Assembly: GCA_027487075.1 (NCBI GenBank)
Contig: JAIYEG010000002.1
Span: 79,202-143,201 of the forward strand
Source: a bacterium
GTDB taxonomy: Bacteria > Patescibacteriota > Minisyncoccia > Phycocordibacterales > CALRBL01
DNA: 64,000 nt
Direction: 5' to 3'
A program made the position numbers and the translations under genes. Positions 2,826 to 40,116 of this stretch are shown piece by piece. Positions within the stretch are counted from its first letter, which is position 1. The number at the start of each line of letters is the position of its first letter. Below the pieces are notes generated by a model, which saw only the letters and a program-made list of their open reading frames with translations, ran no database searches and had not been told where the DNA came from.

Positions 2826-2844
2826 TTTTGTGGTATTGTGTGGC

Positions 2845-3190
2845 TCTGCGCCAGACAATCGCTCTCGCTTGCGAGGGAGGAAAGTCCGAACACAGCCAGC
2901 TTCGGCTGGAGCACGTAGCGGGTAACGCCCGTCTTGTCATATTCAAAAAGGGGCAAAGAGGTGCGAGCAGTGACGCTTGAAGCGAAAGCAGAGAGCATCC
3001 ATAGCAATGTGGATGAATCCATGTGGTAACACACGGAGTGAAACGGCAAAATCCTTACGTCTGTGCAAGGCCGTGTCCCACGAAGTAATTCGTGGTGAAG
3101 TGCCGCTCGAGGGTGTCAGCGATGACACTCCCAGATAAATGATTGTCACCACAGCAATGTGGCACAGAATTCGGCTTATCGGCGCAGGAC
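2845..3190 (+). ncRNA. rnpB: RNase P RNA (bacterial type A-like)
   Basis: Conserved blocks in native order: gggaggaaagtccg (CR-I GGAGGAAAGTCCGGGC), ggtaacgcc, ggagtgaaacgg, acagaattcggcttatcgg (ACAGAANCCGGCTTA). P1 pairs ctgcgcc (2846-2852) with ggcgcag (3181-3187). An extended -10 tgGTATTGT sits just upstream. The ORFs called across this region are spurious. Confidence 0.85.
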
Positions 3191-3197
3191 ATACATG

Positions 3198-30433: not shown

Positions 30434-32197
30434 ATGAATTTACAACCATACTCAGCAATAAGTTTTGATGATTGCAATAAGTTAGCGCTTACACTTGCCA
30501 ACCTTATTATTTCACAAAGAACTGAACTTGTTACTTTACTTACAACATATGAAAGTCACGAGGTGGCTGAAGACGAAATTAGCAGATCATTGGATCTTTT
30601 ACAGAATCTTCATGAAAACAAGGAATATTTCAAATTTCGCGTAGGACAAATTGCCGCATTTCTTCCACGAAACCAACCTTTATATGCGTTTAGCTGTTTT
30701 GTAATTGTGCCAGCACTTCAGGCAAGTGAGGTGCATTTTCGTATTCCACATCCCATGAAGGGATTTTTCCCACAGCTTATGAAAATGTTGCGTATTGAGG
30801 AGTTGTTCCCTCATGTAAAACCATCACCAAAGGAGCGCATGGATTTCCTCAAGGAACGAACCTCATTGTATGTTCATAAAGAAACGGGTGAGACAAAACC
30901 TATCACGGACGCAGTTATTTTTACAGGAACTCCTGCACATGCCGACCAGCTACGTCTTGTGTTCGACAAGCGAACACTTTTCATTACAAACGGTGCTGGA
31001 CACAATCCAATTGTTATCGCAGAGGGAGCAGACATAAAAGAAGCCGTTCAAGCAGCTACCACCCTTATTTTATACAACCAAGGACAAGACTGTGCGGCAC
31101 CAAACTCTATTTTGGTTCACAAAAATGTGTACGAATGCTTTTTAAAACATCTCACTAAAACTCTTAGAAACGTGAAGATTGGTCCTTATCATGACCACAC
31201 TTCACAAGTTGGCCCTATTAGCGACAGTGATGACCTCGTAAGAATCCAAGAAATATTGGTCACACATCGTGAATGGATTCATGAGAGTACAAGAGGAGTA
31301 ATTCGCACCAAAGATTCGATTGTTGAACCAACCATCATTTGTAAACCACTTTCTGAGGGAGGAAATTATGACGAATCATTCGCTCCAATCTTCTTTGTAC
31401 AGCGATATGAAGAGGACGAAGATCTTGCTCAGTATTTTGAAAACAAGCGCTACGCCCAGCACGCTATGTACGTAACACTCTACGGAGAAAGTCCTTACAC
31501 TGAAAGCCTTGTCGACAAAAAATATGATGGACGTATCCTTCATAGTGAATCAACCTTCGTTAAAAACACCCATCTTCATGCTTACGGAATCGAACGAGGA
31601 GTGCAGCCATACGGAGGTTTCGGCTACGGCGCATCAAGCATCAGTATTAGTGGAAAAGTAATTGCGATCCCTACACTTCCACAGCGTGATATTTATGAAT
31701 GGGTTGCAGAGCCATACATCAGTGATAAAAATCTCCTCAAGAATCAAACTGAAAATCTTGAAATCAGAAACAAGCATATTGATAAGCTACTCAAATTCAA
31801 AACAGAGGTTCTTGATAAAAAGGATGTTCCTCTATATGCAGGTAAAACATTTTTTGACACAGCATCTCTCAAGGATGTAAAAGATAGGCGCTTTATCAAG
31901 GTAGAAGATAGATATATTCACCATCTTAATCAAACACCACATGTTGAGTTTATTGCCACACTCACTCCGATAGATATTGCAGACATTCGAAAACTTCTTG
32001 AACTTCTCAAAGAAAAGCACCAACATCCACTTGAAACATTCACTACTAAGCTCTACGCTGTTCCTCCAAAGGAAAAACAGCTTATATTCTTCCAAACACT
32101 CTACCATCTGCTGTTTAGTAAAAACTCAGGCCCAAAACTCGGTCACTTCCTGTGGGAAATTGATAACGATAGCATCTGGCACCTTTTGGATATATAA
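30434..32197 (+). CDS. Divergent aldehyde dehydrogenase-superfamily protein with a C-terminal extension of about 170 aa
   Basis: ILYNQGQDCAAPNSILVHKNVY resembles the ALDH catalytic Cys loop (FxNxGQxCxA). FAPIFFV resembles EIFGPV. GFGYGASSISISG resembles the GG...SG motif. AT-rich. Confidence 0.5.
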   Translation: MNLQPYSAISFDDCNKLALTLANLIISQRTELVTLLTTYESHEVAEDEISRSLDLLQNLHENKEYFKFRVGQIAAFLPRNQPLYAFSCFVIVPALQASEVHFRIPHPMKGFFPQLMKMLRIEELFPHVKPSPKERMDFLKERTSLYVHKETGETKPITDAVIFTGTPAHADQLRLVFDKRTLFITNGAGHNPIVIAEGADIKEAVQAATTLILYNQGQDCAAPNSILVHKNVYECFLKHLTKTLRNVKIGPYHDHTSQVGPISDSDDLVRIQEILVTHREWIHESTRGVIRTKDSIVEPTIICKPLSEGGNYDESFAPIFFVQRYEEDEDLAQYFENKRYAQHAMYVTLYGESPYTESLVDKKYDGRILHSESTFVKNTHLHAYGIERGVQPYGGFGYGASSISISGKVIAIPTLPQRDIYEWVAEPYISDKNLLKNQTENLEIRNKHIDKLLKFKTEVLDKKDVPLYAGKTFFDTASLKDVKDRRFIKVEDRYIHHLNQTPHVEFIATLTPIDIADIRKLLELLKEKHQHPLETFTTKLYAVPPKEKQLIFFQTLYHLLFSKNSGPKLGHFLWEIDNDSIWHLLDI

Positions 32198-34170: not shown

Positions 34171-35397
34171 ATGTTAGACACACTATTCAACCGCATTTCA
34201 GCCGACTGGCGAGGCATGCCTCCAGAAGAATTGTTGGGATATATTCGACCAAAGTGTCAGGAAATTTTGCCTTTAGAGCAACTCAAAACCCTCCTTGCAT
34301 CAGGTGCAAAACTCAAAATCAAGCTCGGCGTCGACGCCACAGGATCAGATCTCCATATTGGCCACATCGTGCCACTCATGCTCCTTCGCCAATTCCAGAA
34401 AGCAGGGCACCACATCGACTTCATCATCGGTGACTTCACCGCAACCATTGGCGATCCATCTGGCCGTGAAAGCGAACGCAAGGCACTCACCGCATCTGAA
34501 GTGAAGAAGAATGCAAAAGGCTTCACCGCACAGATCAAGCCATACCTCGACACGCGCAAAGCAAACGTGCACTTCAATTCAAAGTGGCTCTCGAAGATGA
34601 AGATGTCTGACATGATTAGCTACCTCCAACATGTGAGCATGTCATCAGCAACGCAGCGAGAAGACTTCCGCAAGCGCTTGACTGCGGGAAATTCGGTGAG
34701 TCTCGCCGAGACAATCTACGGCTTTCTCATGGGGCTTGATTCGCTCCACCTCAAGAGCAACATCGAAGTCGGCGCTATCGACCAACTCATCAACTTTCAG
34801 CAGTGCCGAGAGCTCATGTCATCACAGGGTATAACTCCTGAAACCGTACTCTGCGTAGCACTCATCGAGGGAACAGATGGTTCGGGAAGAAAGATGTCAA
34901 AGTCGGTCGGCAACACTATCAATCTGAATGCATCATTCGAAGACAAGTTCGGCAAAGTCATGAGCATTCCCGACAAGCTCATCTTGCCGTGGTATATCGC
35001 ATTCACCGACGTGCACGAGAATGAGATCGAACTCTTGAAGAAAGCTATTGAAGCAGATCCGCTCGAGATGAAGAAGCAGCTCGGCATGCTTCTCATTGCA
35101 CTTGAAACGAAGAGCCTGAAAGAAGGACAAATAGAGCGAGAGAAGTTCGAGCGAAAGTTCACGAAGAAAGAGCTGAGCGATGATGACTTTGTGGAAGTGA
35201 AAGCTGAAGCGCACCACACCCTTTTTGACGCACTCGTTCCACACTTTGAAAGCAAGAGTGAACTCCGACGACTGTTTGAACAAGGAGCAGTGAAGCATGC
35301 TGATACTGAGCATGTGCTTACGATAGATTCAACGATTCAGAACAATATGAAGGTGAGGGTGGGGAAGAGGGGGTTTTTTAGGATAATTAACTACTAA
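34171..35397 (+). CDS. tyrS: Tyrosyl-tRNA synthetase
   Basis: HIGH as DLHIGHIV, IGDFTATIGDPSGRESER, KMSKSVGN and a C-terminal S4-like domain. Confidence 0.9.
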   Translation: MLDTLFNRISADWRGMPPEELLGYIRPKCQEILPLEQLKTLLASGAKLKIKLGVDATGSDLHIGHIVPLMLLRQFQKAGHHIDFIIGDFTATIGDPSGRESERKALTASEVKKNAKGFTAQIKPYLDTRKANVHFNSKWLSKMKMSDMISYLQHVSMSSATQREDFRKRLTAGNSVSLAETIYGFLMGLDSLHLKSNIEVGAIDQLINFQQCRELMSSQGITPETVLCVALIEGTDGSGRKMSKSVGNTINLNASFEDKFGKVMSIPDKLILPWYIAFTDVHENEIELLKKAIEADPLEMKKQLGMLLIALETKSLKEGQIEREKFERKFTKKELSDDDFVEVKAEAHHTLFDALVPHFESKSELRRLFEQGAVKHADTEHVLTIDSTIQNNMKVRVGKRGFFRIINY

Positions 35398-36480
35398 ATG
35401 AAGCTTTTTTCTAAAAGAAACAAACCAATATCAAATCATGGATTTGCTTATAGACCGAATAGATTTCATGAAGTTAGCACTATTGGCAACAGATACAGAC
35501 TAGTTTCTAAAGAAACTAGGAATAGAATGGTTTCTGAAATAAAGTTCTTAACATCTAGTGATGATTTTCTAGAGTGGTTTATTTTATTTGAAAATGAAGA
35601 TAAAGGAAAAATTTTTTTTGATAAAAATAAAATTGATAAATTTTCATTATCTGAATTAGGTTACAAAATGTCTGATTTTTTCGATTTTGAAGATTTTGCA
35701 ATGTTAAAACAACGACAAAAACCTGATGATCCCGAAACAGAGTATTTAGACGATTACAAACTTTTTGATATAGCGGAAATTACAATACTATTTTCATTGG
35801 ATAATAAAAGAAGTGCAGTTATAGATAGATTCAATTCTATATTCATTGAAGAGGACACTGATTTTCAAATAATAGAACATCTTATCACCCGTAAATCTGG
35901 TGACAGTATAAAAACATTGCTAAATTTGTTAAAAGACGAAAATTTAAAAAAGAAATTAAAAATGTTTTTTGAATCGTACGATAACTACGATTTTATTAAT
36001 TCTGCTAAAACATCGGCTGATATTCTTAATATTATATTTTCGGATTATATAAAAAATGAGAAATCAAAAAAGATTTCTGAATTATGTAACAAATTAGCTG
36101 ATAAGATTGTAGTGTCAGATACCAAAGGAGATAAGAGAAAAAGATTCCTTGAGTACATGAACGATTTACTTAAGTTATCTAAAAACTTAAGTAATGATAT
36201 CTATGATGTTCGTCATACTGAAAAATCAACAATAATACTTTCTAATGAAAATATCTATAAGTTAATTTCGAATCAAAACATATCTTTAGTTGAGCTAGTA
36301 TTAACCACATTGAAAGATGACTATGTTCTTGGAGATAACTGGGAAAAAATTAAAGACGATTACATTACGAAATATAATATTAATAAATTATCAAGACAAG
36401 TAATTAAAAAGAGAGTTATTCCTACAATTTTAAAAAGCAACGTGGATGACGAGATCGATCCGGATGACATTCCATTTTAA
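35398..36480 (+). CDS. Hypothetical protein, extremely AT-rich, start-stop coupled to tyrS
   Basis: Its ATG directly abuts the tyrS TAA. 360 aa, Lys/Asp/Phe/Ile-rich, no motif recognised. Composition is sharply different from tyrS and ABC-F. Confidence 0.55.
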   Translation: MKLFSKRNKPISNHGFAYRPNRFHEVSTIGNRYRLVSKETRNRMVSEIKFLTSSDDFLEWFILFENEDKGKIFFDKNKIDKFSLSELGYKMSDFFDFEDFAMLKQRQKPDDPETEYLDDYKLFDIAEITILFSLDNKRSAVIDRFNSIFIEEDTDFQIIEHLITRKSGDSIKTLLNLLKDENLKKKLKMFFESYDNYDFINSAKTSADILNIIFSDYIKNEKSKKISELCNKLADKIVVSDTKGDKRKRFLEYMNDLLKLSKNLSNDIYDVRHTEKSTIILSNENIYKLISNQNISLVELVLTTLKDDYVLGDNWEKIKDDYITKYNINKLSRQVIKKRVIPTILKSNVDDEIDPDDIPF

Positions 36481-36523: not shown

Positions 36524-38017
36524 ATGTCAGGCCCCCACAACAACCGTCCTACCGTCATTCGGTTCGACAATACGAGCTTCGAATTCGGTCACAATCACCC
36601 CATCCTGAAGGAGGTCAATTTCAACGTGCGTGCGGGATCAAAGATCACTATCATGGGTCAAAACGGCGCCGGCAAAAGCACCATCTTCAAACTCATCGAG
36701 GGCATCTATCAACCCGAAGAAGGATTCATTCATATTCAGCAAGGCGCAACCATCGCTACGGCAAAGCAGGTCATACCTCGTGACGAGCTCGACCTTTCGG
36801 TCACTGCTTTTTTTGAAAAAGCCCTTGCACGCGTATCTGACAAGAAGATCTATGACATCGACCGTCGCATCGCAAAGGTGCTTGAGATCGTGAACCTCCA
36901 CATCGACCCCGCACTCTACGCAGAGCGCATCGTGCGTTCATTTTCTGGTGGTCAGCAAGCACGTCTTCTCTTGGCATCTGCCATCATCCAGGATCCTGAC
37001 ATTCTTCTGTTGGACGAGCCGACTAACAACCTCGACCATGCCGGCATCGAACATCTCAAGACCTTCATCAAGAACTACAAGAAAACTATTCTCGTTATTT
37101 CCCACGATGCAGAATTTTTGAATTCATTCACCGAAGGCGTGCTGTATCTTGATGTACACACACAGAAAGTGGAACAGTACACCGGAAACTATTACGACCT
37201 CCTCAAAGAGATCACTGCTCGTATCGAAAAGGAAAATCGCGCTAACGCACTTCGTGCAAAAGAAATCCAAGAGAACAAAGACAAGGCGAACTTCTTTGCC
37301 AACAAAGGAGGACAGATGCGCCTCGTCGCCAAGCGCATGCGCGAAAAAGCAGAAGAACTCGAAGAGGAGATGGTGGACGTGCGCAAGGAAGACAAGACAA
37401 TTCGCTCATTCAGTATTCCTTCGCAGCAGGAGTTTGTGGGACCATTGGTGACTATTGAGTCATATAGCATCATCAGCCCGAAGACCCACAAGCCCGTGAC
37501 ACGAAAGTGCGACATCAGCCTCAACAAGAAGCAGCACCTTCTTCTCAAGGGTCCGAACGGTATCGGCAAGAGCACACTCCTTGAGACGCTTGCTTCAGGC
37601 AAAGCAAAAGGTGTGACCATCACTGAAGGAGTGCGCGTCGGCTACTACCGACAGGATTTCTCAACACTCGACTTCGAGCACACCGTATACGAATCGCTGC
37701 GCGAAGCGAATGAAACGACAAGTGACGACAATTTTCGCAGCACGGCAGCAGGGTTCCTCATCGGAGGCGACATGATGAAAAAGAAAGTGGGCATGCTCTC
37801 TGAAGGACAGAAGGGGCTTGTGGCGTTTGCTCGCCTCGTACTCCAAAAGCCGGGACTTCTCATCTTGGACGAGCCGACCAACCACATCAACTTCCGCCAC
37901 ATTCCTGTGATTGCAAAAGCCCTCGATACATACGAAGGTGCCATGATCCTCGTGAGTCACGTACCAGAGTTCGTAGAGCAAATCCGCATTGATGAGACGT
38001 TGGATTTGGAGAAATAA
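36524..38017 (+). CDS. ABC-F family ATPase (tandem ABC domains, no TMD)
   Basis: Two Walker A motifs (GQNGAGKST, GPNGIGKST) and two signature/Walker B motifs (LSGGQQARL...LLLDEPTNNLD, LSEGQKGL...LILDEPTNHIN). Extended -10 tgcTATAGT upstream. Confidence 0.85.
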   Translation: MSGPHNNRPTVIRFDNTSFEFGHNHPILKEVNFNVRAGSKITIMGQNGAGKSTIFKLIEGIYQPEEGFIHIQQGATIATAKQVIPRDELDLSVTAFFEKALARVSDKKIYDIDRRIAKVLEIVNLHIDPALYAERIVRSFSGGQQARLLLASAIIQDPDILLLDEPTNNLDHAGIEHLKTFIKNYKKTILVISHDAEFLNSFTEGVLYLDVHTQKVEQYTGNYYDLLKEITARIEKENRANALRAKEIQENKDKANFFANKGGQMRLVAKRMREKAEELEEEMVDVRKEDKTIRSFSIPSQQEFVGPLVTIESYSIISPKTHKPVTRKCDISLNKKQHLLLKGPNGIGKSTLLETLASGKAKGVTITEGVRVGYYRQDFSTLDFEHTVYESLREANETTSDDNFRSTAAGFLIGGDMMKKKVGMLSEGQKGLVAFARLVLQKPGLLILDEPTNHINFRHIPVIAKALDTYEGAMILVSHVPEFVEQIRIDETLDLEK

Positions 38018-38037
38018 AATCTTTCTCAAATCGAGTC

Positions 38038-38065
38038 TTGACTTAACCCTTTTATTAACTACAAT
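38038..38065 (+). promoter_or_regulatory. Near-consensus sigma-70 promoter (TTGACT-16-TACAAT) firing into a terminator about 10 nt downstream
   Basis: ttgact taacccttttattaac tacaat at 38038-38065. No ORF follows before the terminator at 38092-38120. Confidence 0.45.
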
Positions 38066-38091
38066 GCAGGTACATTCGGCATTCGCCGCGA

Positions 38092-38120
38092 CCCCGCCCG
38101 CAAGGGCGGGGAATTTTATT
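38092..38120 (+). terminator. Intrinsic terminator (CCCCGCCC-gcaa-GGGCGGGG + aattttattt)
   Basis: Perfect 8-bp GC stem, GNRA loop and a T-run on the plus strand only. Overlaps the 3' end of the minus-strand toxin gene. Confidence 0.65.
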
Positions 38121-38505
38121 TATATAAGGAATGAAACTGTGCTTTTACTTTTTTAAAATCATTTCCATCAACTTGACCGAGGCGAGTAAAAAGTCTTCTG
38201 TAATCTATAGTTCGCACCCGGTGTAAACAAACCTTCATTTCTGTATTATCTAAAATTAATGGTACATACCATGATCCTTCTTTTATCTGAGTAGTCGTAG
38301 GCGCAACCAAGTAGAAACCACGAGCTAATTTCTTAAGAATCAAACCAGGTCTTGTATAAACAGAGCTTTTACCATTAATTTCAGAACCAATATTTTGACC
38401 AAAACTTATCCACCATATATCCCTTTCACTGACCAACGGAGGAGAAGCTTCGACTGAATGCAGTTTTACCTTTACTGCTATCCACTTTAAAAACACATCA
38501 ATCAT
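38116..38505 (-). CDS. MazF/PemK-family endoribonuclease toxin-like protein with no adjacent antitoxin gene
   Basis: ...ERDIWWISFGQNIGSEINGKSSVYTRPGLILKK...FYLVAPTTTQIKEGSWYVPLILDN...KVCLHRVRTIDYRRL matches the PemK/MazF pattern (RPxLVL, PxTS/T, IRTID.RRL). AT-rich. There is no upstream ORF on the same strand. Confidence 0.7.
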   Translation of the reverse strand: MIDVFLKWIAVKVKLHSVEASPPLVSERDIWWISFGQNIGSEINGKSSVYTRPGLILKKLARGFYLVAPTTTQIKEGSWYVPLILDNTEMKVCLHRVRTIDYRRLFTRLGQVDGNDFKKVKAQFHSLYK

Positions 38506-38541
38506 GTACTCATTTTAGAGTATGGGAGTAAAATGCTACCG

Positions 38542-38843
38542 AATATATCTTCAGTTTATCCTAAATTTGGAGAAATAATCTCCTCATGTCAGGATATACA
38601 CGGAACCTCTTACGTGTGAGAGTAACACGTCGATAATCGACCTGAGCCACAATGTCGGCCGTATCTATAACGGTCCGGTGGAAGGAAGAGTCTGCGGCCT
38701 ATCAGCTAGTTGGTGTGACGTAGTAAGTAGCGTCGAGCGAAGATGACGTCGAGTCCAGGTTCACCTGGAGGAGGGTAAATGCCTACCAAGGCTATGACGG
38801 GTAGCGAGAACAGAAGATGAACTCGCCTCACACAAGGGAATCC
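38542..38843 (+). pseudogene. Orphan 16S rRNA 5'-domain-like fragment (E. coli positions about 8-330 equivalent) with a 58-nt insertion
   Basis: 16S blocks in native order: agtttatcct, gtgagagtaacacgt, gcggcctatcagctagttggtg, then the insertion, then ggtaaatgcctaccaaggctatgacgggtagc, then degenerate. Ends in its own terminator. No remainder of the SSU gene follows. Confidence 0.7.
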
Positions 38844-38878
38844 CGGCGGCGTGTCATGTACACGCCGCCGCTTTTTAT
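38844..38878 (+). terminator. Intrinsic terminator ending the 16S-like fragment
   Basis: cGGCGGCGTGT-catgt-ACACGCCGCCg + cttttt. Its T-run overlaps the stop codon of the convergent gene. Confidence 0.6.
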
Positions 38879-40116
38879 ATATTATTTCCCGCAACAAACC
38901 CCGTCGTCCAGCAGAGCTGCAGGCTGTACCCGCCGCTTGGCCTATCAATATTCAAAATATCTCCCACGAGGTAAAGATTCGGGAAGAACCGTGACTGCAT
39001 AGTCTTGAAATCTACTTCATCGAGCTTCACGCCGCCTGAGGTCACGATGGCCTGGTCTGTTCCTAAAAGTCCTTCTACATGAAGCGGGATATTCTTGAGC
39101 GTCTGGATGAGCTTGATGCGTTGTTCACGTGTGATATTGCTGTTGGTGGTATCAAGATCAATTCCTGAAAGCGTGAGTACCGGCTCGACGAGTGTCGAAA
39201 GTATGATCGTGCCAAGCGCATTCTTCAGCTTCTTTTTATTCTCTTTTGCAAAAAGTTCCATGAGCATCGTATTGATGCGGTCATGACCTTGGTTGGGAAG
39301 GAGATCGAGCCCGATCACCACCTCGCCATATTTCAACAGCTCGCCGACATCCTGGCTCATATTGAGCACCATCGGTCCAGAAACTCCGAAATGCGTGAAG
39401 AGTACACGCCCCGTCTTTTTGCTCACCGCGCTTTCTTGCTTCACGCCATTTTGAAACAGCGTCAGTCGGACCTCCTGAAGCGTCGCTCCTTGGAGTTTCT
39501 TGGTCCACTCATCTTTGAGTGCTACGGGCACGAGCACCGCTTGAGGCTCGATGACGGTGTGGCCGATCTGCTTCAACCATTCGAAACCATCACCCGTCGA
39601 TCCTGTTTCTGGCCGAGACTTTCCGCCGGTTGCCAGTACATATGATTTTGCCTTGAGGATTTCGCCGCCTTTGAGGGTGACACCTACGATCTCTGACCCT
39701 TCCTTAACAAACCCCGTCACCTCTGCATTTGAACGCACCTCGACGCTTTGCGATCGCATATATTCCACAAGTACATCCCACACCGACTGCGCTTTGTCCG
39801 TGACAGGGAAGACGCGTTTCTCGTTTTCCACTTTGGTCTCCATGTCGCGCAGATGAAAGAACTCAAGCGACTCCTTGACGCTGTATTGTGAGAATGCCGA
39901 GAACAGATACTTGCCATCATCCTTGAATTTGGCGAGGAGTGCGCGGTCATCGAACTCGGCATTAGTCACATTACAACGTCCGCCACCAGTGATGAGGAGT
40001 TTTTTGCCGAGAGTGTCATTTTTCTCGAGCAGCAACACCGAAAGGCCGCGCTCCGCAGCGCGTCCAGCTGCCATCATGCCCGATGGCCCGCCTCCGATGA
40101 CGATTACATCGTACAT
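38875..40116 (-). CDS. NAD(P)/FAD-dependent oxidoreductase, HI0933/BaiN family
   Basis: MYDVIVIGGGPSGMMAAGRAAERG dinucleotide-binding motif. Full-length HI0933-like layout ending ...GYSLQLCWTTGFVAG. Confidence 0.85.
   Translation of the reverse strand: MYDVIVIGGGPSGMMAAGRAAERGLSVLLLEKNDTLGKKLLITGGGRCNVTNAEFDDRALLAKFKDDGKYLFSAFSQYSVKESLEFFHLRDMETKVENEKRVFPVTDKAQSVWDVLVEYMRSQSVEVRSNAEVTGFVKEGSEIVGVTLKGGEILKAKSYVLATGGKSRPETGSTGDGFEWLKQIGHTVIEPQAVLVPVALKDEWTKKLQGATLQEVRLTLFQNGVKQESAVSKKTGRVLFTHFGVSGPMVLNMSQDVGELLKYGEVVIGLDLLPNQGHDRINTMLMELFAKENKKKLKNALGTIILSTLVEPVLTLSGIDLDTTNSNITREQRIKLIQTLKNIPLHVEGLLGTDQAIVTSGGVKLDEVDFKTMQSRFFPNLYLVGDILNIDRPSGGYSLQLCWTTGFVAGNNI

Follow-up and report, generated by a model that had tools for sequence, protein, structure and literature searches.

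In the txpA/RatA and bsrG/SR4 systems of Bacillus subtilis and the par system (RNA I/RNA II) of Enterococcus faecalis, a convergent antitoxin RNA is complementary to the 3' end of the toxin messenger RNA (mRNA), a terminator hairpin lies between the two genes, and the promoter of the RNA is much stronger than that of the toxin. These type I toxin-antitoxin systems are the closest in mechanism to the locus described here, a toxin gene and a facing small-RNA gene that together form a cassette of ~550 bp in a bacterium of the Candidate Phyla Radiation (CPR; GTDB lineage Patescibacteriota, Minisyncoccia, Phycocordibacterales, CALRBL01). The cassette lies in a stretch of 64,000 nucleotides (contig JAIYEG010000002.1 of assembly GCA_027487075.1, positions 79,202 to 143,201), hereafter the window, to which all coordinates refer unless another replicon or locus is named. 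The layout of the cassette shares with the txpA/RatA type a convergent RNA, a terminator hairpin between the genes and an RNA promoter that is predicted to be the stronger of the two. The toxins differ, the known type I toxins being hydrophobic, membrane-damaging peptides of <60 amino acids (aa) whereas that of the window is a 129-aa soluble protein of the MazF fold, and the primary sequence of the window RNA is conserved far past what antisense pairing needs.

Other classes of toxin-antitoxin system resemble the locus in one component and not in another. The type II systems mazEF and pemIK (E. coli MazEF, B. subtilis EndoA/EndoAI) have a toxin of the same fold, the same Pfam family and the same catalytic arginine and threonine; the window toxin differs from theirs in having no MazE/PemI gene beside it, in its extra N-terminal helix, in standing as a lone gene and in its leaderless-type promoter. 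Databases name the proteins of this family 'type II' toxins, a label that the gene layout here does not fit. The type III systems (ToxIN, CptIN, TenpIN, AbiQ/antiQ) likewise join an endoribonuclease toxin to a structured RNA, and ToxN itself has a Kid/MazF-like fold. The window toxin, in contrast, matches MazF and not ToxN, no defence model of PADLOC matches it, and its RNA is present as a single copy with a convergent promoter of its own; Tandem Repeats Finder (TRF) found no tandem repeats in 37800-38900, and a repeat search agrees. In SymE/SymR of E. coli, a protein of type II ancestry has come under a cis-antisense RNA instead of a protein partner, a state of affairs much like the one considered here except that SymE has the AbrB (MazE-like) fold and SymR overlaps the 5' end of the mRNA, whereas the window toxin has the MazF fold and its RNA lies at the 3' end.

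The closest known system overall is carried by the Campylobacter jejuni plasmid pVir, if the pair named cjrA/cjpT is the one encoded by CJpv3 and pVir0047. The protein pVir0047 (CJJ81176_pVir0047) is a homologous, N-terminally extended PemK/MazF toxin without an adjacent protein antitoxin, and it is 32% identical to the window toxin (E 2e-16). CJpv3 is a Northern-detected RNA of 77 nucleotides (nt) on the pVir minus strand (31119->31043), between pVir0047 and pVir0048 (Dugar 2013, PMC3656092, Table S12). In differential RNA sequencing (dRNA-seq) its start, recorded as antisense to pVir0047, reaches a step height of 16164, while the start of the toxin gene (405 nt), which lies at 30608 and gives a 26-nt leader, reaches 28 (PMC3656092, Table S5). 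By these step heights the RNA is initiated ~600-fold more strongly than the toxin mRNA, and the promoter that we derived from the plasmid sequence agrees with the one printed in PMC3656092. Passages of PMC7826846 and PMC10470494, citing Shen 2016 (Mol Microbiol 101:909), state that strain 81-176 carries on pVir a type I system whose antitoxin is the antisense RNA CjrA. The pVir locus is like ours in its abundant convergent RNA with its own -10 promoter and in a last hairpin (CCCCG...CGGGG) followed by an AU-rich tail 5 nt from the toxin stop codon. It differs in the length of the RNA (77 nt, against 50 nt and two hairpins in the window), the terminal hairpin and AU-rich tail alone being similar, by eye; in the 26-nt leader of its toxin mRNA, where the CPR genes look leaderless; and in its host replicon, a plasmid as opposed to a CPR chromosome for the window cassette.

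An initial annotation of the window, made from its letters and open reading frames (ORFs), had proposed that a near-perfect sigma-70 promoter fires a short, terminated transcript against the 3' end of a MazF-like gene. The promoter is there as described, recognised both in the sequence and in the family profile: a -35 box TTGACT (38038-38043), a 16-nt spacer and a -10 box TACAAT (38060-38065) on the plus strand, which over 38038-38065 match 10 of 12 consensus positions, and the exact pattern TTGACT-16-TACAAT occurs once in the 64-kb window against 0.03 occurrences expected from shuffles. The small RNA would extend over 38072-38122 (+), or ~50 nt, its start being placed by promoter geometry and the onset of conservation and its 3' end by the terminator; the family's start-site signature together with that onset puts the first nucleotide of the window copy at A38072. 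The predicted RNA begins with a single-stranded ACAUUCGG, continues with hairpin 1 (38077-38088, CGGC-AUUC-GCCG), a CGA linker and hairpin 2 (38092-38111), and ends in AATTTTATTT. Hairpin 2 is the GNRA-looped, 8-bp GC hairpin of the annotation, with eight G-C pairs and a GCAA loop, and the 51-nt RNA as a whole is predicted to fold into its two hairpins with -25.6 kcal/mol (z = -3.9). The further claim that this hairpin overlaps the toxin stop codon needs amending: the U tract of the terminator (38112-38124) does cover the stop codon (38116-38118), but the stem ends 5 nt short of it.

The transcript is recognisable as a gene by its conservation. DNA similarity between toxin loci extends ~45 nt beyond the stop codon, and over this stretch the loci are more alike than in the coding region itself; nearly every locus has the same block there. 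On the strand that faces the toxin gene, the block consists of TTGAC(A/T), 16-17 nt, TAnnnT (often with a TGn extension) and five variable nucleotides, followed by (T/C)ACATTCGG, hairpin 1, CGCG(G/A), a G+C-rich hairpin 2 and GGAATATTTATTT, the tail entering the stop codon and the last codons of the toxin (LYK-stop). In profiles of 75-79 loci, the -35 bases TTGAC are present in 69-93% of loci per position and the T, A and final T of the -10 box in 100%, 99% and 99%; a pyrimidine at -1 and an A at +1, the usual signature of a start site, are each found in 99%. The five variable positions stand before the predicted start, and near-invariance begins exactly at it.

Base pairing in the two hairpins has been maintained through compensatory change. 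Covariation was counted independently of any covariance model, on a MAFFT alignment of 74 distinct sequences, in which 96.5% of cells are paired and 10 of 11 pairs are changed on both sides. In hairpin 1, one C-G pair is replaced by G-C in 33 of the 74 sequences and another pair goes from G-C to A-U in 7, with zero broken pairs. The covariation score of 0.35 falls to at most 0.09, and pairing to 45-58%, when partners are slid by 1-3 columns, and none of 500 shuffles matches the observed values for pairing or covariation. A covariance model of the RNA (R1) has a sole significant match in the window, at 38071-38120 (71.4 bits, E 1.4e-16), and 81 matches across 81 loci (467 kb), each directly 3' of the toxin gene and on the opposite strand; those in loci L072 and L088 and the second copy in L075 lay outside the training set. 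By this model the small RNA is present in 80 of the 81 toxin loci (L054 being the only one without a match), so that the convergent mini-transcript of the initial annotation stands as a conserved and covarying small-RNA gene linked to the toxin. Most of the loci tested had also served to build R1, and the value of the model lies in its specificity: in ~1.2 Mb (467 kb of flanks, the 64-kb window and 670 kb of viral DNA) it has no matches away from toxin genes. The arrangement goes far beyond chance, since the whole unit of promoter, RNA and terminator recurs beside nearly all toxins of the family. Carriage by phages was considered and rejected, as none of 72 matches to a 16-base core motif in IMG/VR, the contigs with which make up the 670 kb of viral DNA, passes the covariance model.

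A separate observation concerns the region before the small-RNA promoter. A 9-mer resembling a DnaA box (TTATCCACA, at most one mismatch) is found just upstream of the -35 box, ~50 nt upstream of the RNA start, in 16 of 79 loci (among them L003, L014-L018 and L022; the window is not one of them), where shuffles give ~3 per 130 nt. These sequence matches are hints that a subset of the small-RNA promoters may be coupled to DnaA.

The gene facing the small RNA (38116-38505, minus strand) encodes a protein of 129 aa that is predicted, from Pfam and AlphaFold, to be an endoribonuclease of the PemK/MazF fold. The assignment to MazF/PemK made in the initial annotation is borne out by Pfam PF02452 (PemK_toxin), which matches residues 28-125 over profile positions 3-106 of 109 with 42.8 bits (gathering (GA) cut-off 23.1; E 6.7e-11); the MazF equivalog of NCBIfam gives a sub-threshold match only. 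The closest solved relative by sequence, in a profile search of the Protein Data Bank (PDB), is B. subtilis EndoA/MazF (4mdx, E 1.2e-5). The AlphaFold model (pLDDT 76.5) shows a MazF barrel with an added N-terminal helix (residues 2-17), an addition that is kept in the family according to both the alignment and the model. Compared by Foldseek, it superimposes on the MazF proteins of E. coli, B. subtilis and S. aureus with TM scores of 0.74-0.80, normalised to target, and among the 50 PDB matches listed all are of MazF type (MazF, PemK/MoxT, YdcE/EndoA), with probability 1.0. The catalytic arginine and threonine of MazF are R29/T52 in E. coli and R25/T48 in B. subtilis. Their equivalents, R52 (in RPG) and T71 (in APTT), are invariant among 26 members of the family, the correspondence with R25/T48 having been drawn by eye on the 4mdx chain and the ungapped HMMER alignment not placing R52 on R25. 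On the strength of model and alignment, the protein looks like an active MazF-type endoribonuclease. A weak tblastn match at 34990-35214 that might have been a second MazF-like gene in the window falls within tyrS and is spurious.

No protein antitoxin accompanies this toxin, as the initial annotation had also remarked. The eight small ORFs in 38020-38870 have no Pfam match even at E <= 10, and when all ORFs of >= 35 aa located up to 450 nt from the toxin gene were clustered over ~80 loci, no family was common to more than 3 loci, paralogous toxins aside. The locus thus lacks the adjacent, co-transcribed antitoxin gene of MazE/PemI, AbrB or ribbon-helix-helix (RHH) type by which a type II system would be recognised.

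The toxin gene has its own, weaker signals for expression. A probable -10 box, TAAAAT (38512-38517, minus strand), identified by its sequence, stands 6 nt before the start codon (TAAAAT-GAGTAC-ATG), and 48 of 81 loci have a TAnnnT hexamer whose end lies 4-10 nt (mode 6-7) upstream of the start codon, where shuffles give 18.8 +/- 3.7; in 25 of the 48 it has a TGn extension. Shine-Dalgarno-like motifs occur upstream of the toxin in only 3 of the 81 loci, and the toxin gene of the window has none. These patterns suggest that the toxin mRNA is probably leaderless, in which case no 5' untranslated region (UTR) would be available for regulation. At the other end of the gene, no minus-strand terminator was found in 37000-40000, so the toxin transcript should read through the small-RNA gene and be fully complementary to the small RNA. 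In its layout the locus would fit a type I system, with the convergent promoter and RNA gene conserved and no sense-strand terminator before the RNA gene. Pairing in trans between the 5' end of the small RNA and the 5' coding region of the toxin was rejected as a candidate interaction, as only some members of the family have even a weak 5-bp match (CAUUC/GAAUG) and the window copy has none.

The toxin family is large and widely distributed. Its proteins are ~129 aa long, number in the hundreds and are 50-72% identical across CPR lineages, and the pairing with the small RNA extends to hundreds of these ultra-small bacteria. Data with one genome per species yielded 114 toxin loci, of which 80 were kept; by the labels of the depositors of the metagenome-assembled genomes (MAGs), which we use throughout, their hosts include Paceibacterota (Vogel-, Taylor-, Giovannoni-, Nomura-, Kaiser-, Adler- and Wolfebacteria), Peregrinibacteria/Peribacteria, Gracilibacteria and MAGs labelled Saccharibacteria. 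Several genomes have 2-3 copies, sometimes in tandem, and the loci otherwise share no gene neighbourhood. A profile search of 1.84 billion cluster representatives matched 2312 clusters at E <= 1e-3 and 1350 at E <= 1e-10, and most of the matches listed span the full profile, N-terminal extension included. Four whole cassettes (L032, L051, L059 and L074; toxin and small RNA, the latter at 53-71 bits) lie on contigs of 73-324 kb from MAGs labelled Alphaproteobacteria, Hyphomicrobiales or Hyphomicrobium, which reflects either transfer beyond the CPR or an error of binning or labelling. In the toxin ORFs of the 80 loci, the 5-mers AGTCA (z = -5.5) and AAGTC (z = -4.4) are rarer than in synonymous-codon shuffles. 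The complement TGACT is similar to a -35 box, and the toxin genes may be avoiding spurious promoters on the antisense strand.

The layout of toxin and facing RNA recurs in more distant relatives, where the RNAs are different ones. At L039 (2455-4112 of that locus) at least four diverged MazF-like cassettes stand in a tandem array, and each has a convergent small-RNA gene of its own type. The toxins of this array are 31-39% identical to each other and to the window toxin, each is followed by its own promoter and hairpins, and the ATG of the next toxin comes only ~10-20 nt past the -35 box of the preceding RNA. A second CPR toxin family (127 aa, >800 matches) is defined by one of these paralogues, and the small-RNA layout is present in 31 of 37 metagenomic loci of that family (L090-L126). 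Its unit, TTGACA-17-TATACT-N5-6-ACAAATG(G/C)CTTCGG(G/C)CCGTCC-hairpin-GAGAACAA, has a UUCG hairpin 1 that covaries and lacks a U tract, so that this RNA should run antisense into the 3' end of the toxin gene. The RNA starts with ACA in both CPR families (ACAUUCGG in that of the window, ACAAAUGG in the second). Plasmid homologues in PLSDB are limited to the Campylobacterota; the loci of Nitratiruptor, Helicobacter suis, Helicobacter sp. and C. jejuni pVir each combine a -10 box with two or three hairpins, and the final hairpin (CCCYG...CRGGG), with an AAUAUU-like tail, adjoins the toxin stop codon. R1, run with filters off, has no match in the pVir locus (L089), in the Helicobacter and Nitratiruptor loci or in the second-family RNAs, and by this comparison the subfamilies appear to share an architecture and no detectable RNA sequence. 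Nor did cmscan against Rfam 15 at E <= 10 match any family to the window element (a 121-nt search included), to the L039 elements or to the pVir RNA. Rfam 15 should include RF02913, the pemK RNA motif (Weinberg et al. 2017), which we take to be a bioinformatically defined motif named after neighbouring pemK genes.

The cassette behaves as an insertion. In the window, a perfect 14-nt direct repeat, ATTTGGAGAAATAA, brackets the small-RNA gene, the toxin gene and the toxin promoter and so delimits the cassette to 38018-38564 (~550 bp); the first copy (38004-38017, read on the plus strand) forms the last 14 nt of the ORF of an ABC-F gene, including its stop codon, and the second (38565-38578) lies 59 nt upstream of the toxin ATG. 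Flanking direct repeats of >= 12 nt (14-129 nt) occur in 19 of 77 loci (L003, L016, L019, L028, L078 and L086 among them), against 0.7% in flank pairs taken from mismatched loci. The repeats look like target duplications and not like ends of the element, because their sequences differ from locus to locus and their distance to the conserved features varies. A relative with an 84% identical ABC-F gene offers an empty site, in which the stop codons of the ABC-F gene and of the HI0933-like gene beyond it are 3 nt apart, with neither the cassette nor an adjacent 16S-like segment (described below) between them. Insertion would also account for the base composition of the toxin gene, which the initial annotation had rightly called AT-rich (35-38% G+C, against ~50% in its neighbours). 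Judged from the sequences of the repeats, the mechanism of insertion does not appear to resemble the fixed-length duplication made by a transposase.

We consider it probable, with a confidence somewhat above even, that the cassette is a self-contained mobile toxin-antitoxin system, of addiction or defence type, with the small RNA as its antitoxin and a type I-like action as the likeliest way of working. The toxin would be made from a weak, -10-only promoter as a leaderless mRNA, while the near-consensus sigma-70 promoter facing it would make the ~50-nt RNA with its two hairpins, the intrinsic terminator of which abuts the toxin stop. The 3' end of the toxin mRNA, through read-through, would be perfectly complementary to the abundant small RNA, and the resulting RNA-RNA duplex would lower the stability or output of the toxin mRNA by triggering its decay, an effect to which convergent transcription would probably add. 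Loss of the cassette, or a drop in the short-lived RNA, would then free the toxin. The type I-like route is favoured by the gene layout and by the description of the pVir system in the literature. The data show to which family the toxin belongs, its fold and catalytic residues, that it has no conserved protein partner, that the RNA gene is conserved, covarying and linked to the toxin alone, and that the cassette is an insertion. Transcription in this organism, the ends of the RNA, the toxicity of the protein and the mode of its neutralisation are things that we infer.

Several points weigh against this proposal. The small RNA overlaps the toxin ORF itself by a few nucleotides only. The unpaired positions of the RNA (ACAUUCG, CGCG and GAAUAU) are almost invariant across very divergent lineages; a cis-antisense RNA has no need of such invariance, since both partners change together, and the pattern points to a sequence-specific protein partner. 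The loops are stable tetraloops (GCAA in the window, UUCG in the second family), which are poor at initiating loop-loop antisense contacts. Covariation, moreover, cannot separate the strands, and the folding energies of the two strands differ by a mean of -0.03 kcal/mol (p = 0.44). Finally, the identity of CjrA with CJpv3 and of CjpT with pVir0047 is no more than a reasonable and probable inference.

The invariance of the unpaired bases is one ground for a second explanation, of type III kind, in which the small RNA would act as a pseudo-substrate, binding directly to the MazF-like dimer and obstructing its RNA groove, whether or not an antisense effect is added to this. Unpaired nucleotides are near-invariant while the stems covary, in lineages whose toxins are only 50-60% identical, and every diverged toxin paralogue in L039 retains its own type of RNA. 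MazF enzymes cut the phosphodiester bond 5' of ACA. An RNA beginning pppACA would have no scissile bond in that place and, on general MazF enzymology, might occupy the active site uncleaved; the ACA start common to both CPR families fits this proposal. So does the nearest solved relative of the toxin, B. subtilis MazF, an enzyme that recognises UACAU. Closed tetraloops, too, are seen more typically in scaffolds that bind protein than in antisense RNAs that act by kissing. Against these points, tandem repeats of the ToxI kind are missing, and the RNA gene is convergent with the toxin gene and not upstream of it on the same strand. The toxin ORFs, in which avoidance might have betrayed a cleavage motif, show no strong depletion of ACA, UAC, ACAU or ACAUU, the strongest among the ACA-type motifs being that of UAC and UACA (z only about -3). 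The pVir RNA, furthermore, does not start with ACA, and the pVir system is called type I in the passages of PMC7826846 and PMC10470494 that describe it. We regard direct binding as possible and, on balance, unlikely. Were the RNA to act in this way, the system would be a hybrid class, a type II toxin with a type III antitoxin carried on a selfish CPR cassette of ~550 bp, a classification that we put forward just as tentatively.

A third explanation takes advantage of the strand-blind nature of covariation. The block 3' of the toxin gene might act on the toxin-sense strand, as an element of the 3' UTR for stability or processing, or as DNA, in the form of a folded recombination site, the promoter boxes being secondary. 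The equal folding energies are compatible with this, some C.A mismatches in the stems would be G.U pairs on the sense strand, and the cassette is mobile and accompanied by target duplications. The count of G.U cells, ~25 on the small-RNA strand against ~15 potential wobbles on the toxin strand, leans only mildly the other way. The assignment to the small-RNA strand instead relies on the -35 and -10 boxes at a fixed distance, on the pyrimidine/purine start signature with the onset of conservation exactly at the start, on the U tail and on the precedent in a homologue; the promoter, the start signature and the onset of conservation are unexpected if the block works as DNA or on the sense strand. 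The U-rich tail after hairpin 2 is present on the small-RNA strand only, the toxin strand running on with CCGCGGCG; the ends of the cassette vary in position relative to the block; and the antisense RNA of pVir is real, and initiated far more strongly than its toxin mRNA. We therefore think this explanation improbable.

Less probable again, and in our view with little chance of being right, is that the protein does not arrest growth but is a domesticated RNase that forms a stable ribonucleoprotein with the small RNA and serves in, for example, defence or the processing of RNA. Its conservation is unusually high (50-72%) across deep CPR lineages, with several copies per genome, and the added N-terminal helix is conserved as well. 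Evidence to the contrary comes from the mobility, patchy distribution and atypical G+C of the cassette and from its location on plasmids in the Campylobacterota; PADLOC matches no defence model to it, and the passages on pVir in PMC7826846 and PMC10470494 report that pair as a toxin-antitoxin system. That the hairpin is simply a terminator shared by the convergent ABC-F and toxin genes, with a promoter there by chance, is effectively refuted: the hairpin does lie 75 nt past the ABC-F stop codon and would end ABC-F transcripts too, but this combination of promoter, RNA and hairpin is found after the toxin gene in ~80 unrelated contexts while the ABC-F gene of the relative is without the element, which travels with the toxin and not with ABC-F.

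The surroundings of the cassette, in the order tyrS, a variable site, ABC-F, a second variable site, the HI0933-like gene and trpS, contain other apparent arrivals. Upstream of the toxin, at 38618-38829 (+), is an orphan fragment resembling the 5' domain of 16S ribosomal RNA (rRNA). It corresponds to positions 106-311 of the Rfam model SSU_rRNA_bacteria with 26.2 bits (E 6.9e-6 with 401 nt searched), which falls short of the gathering score, 50; several of its helices are shortened, it has a 64-nt insertion, and a strong plus-strand terminator (38844-38870) follows it. There is no other rRNA in the 64-kb window. Because the fragment is missing from the other toxin loci and from the empty site of the relative, we take it to be a separate insertion; a role as decoy or antitoxin was rejected on the same absence from all other toxin loci. 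At the first variable site, an ORF of 360 aa (35398-36480, +) with 22-30% G+C starts right after the tyrS stop codon and has neither a Pfam nor a PADLOC match; it, too, looks to be foreign DNA inserted into this variable neighbourhood. Elsewhere in the window, a bacterial RNase P RNA of class A was recognised at 2843-3194 (+, 119 bits), and ARAGORN found no tRNA gene in the 64 kb.

Taken with the comparisons across loci, the cassette would belong to a large branch of RNA-controlled MazF toxins in the CPR that has so far gone unrecognised and that has a conserved RNA class of its own, toxin genes of leaderless type and an organisation into mobile cassettes, and we hold this to be rather likelier to be true than false. 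In the literature searched on MazF with Patescibacteria or with RNA antitoxins we found no prior description of it. The clade, which comprises at least 1350 clusters at 50% identity, is at present labelled 'type II', and a demonstration that its toxins are paired with a small RNA would correct those annotations. It adds a well-supported, covarying class of RNA that has no match in Rfam, and does so in the CPR, organisms that are not culturable and in which regulatory RNAs are almost unknown. The target duplications of variable length (14-129 bp) point to an uncharacterised movement of very small cassettes. The invariant unpaired bases, for their part, would allow antisense action to be sharply distinguished from direct binding of the toxin; if direct binding is true, it would be a cassette of that kind that spreads through the CPR and occasionally into MAGs labelled Alphaproteobacteria. 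The pairing of toxin and small RNA described here would extend control by an RNA antitoxin from the one case on a Campylobacter plasmid to a major part of the CPR radiation.

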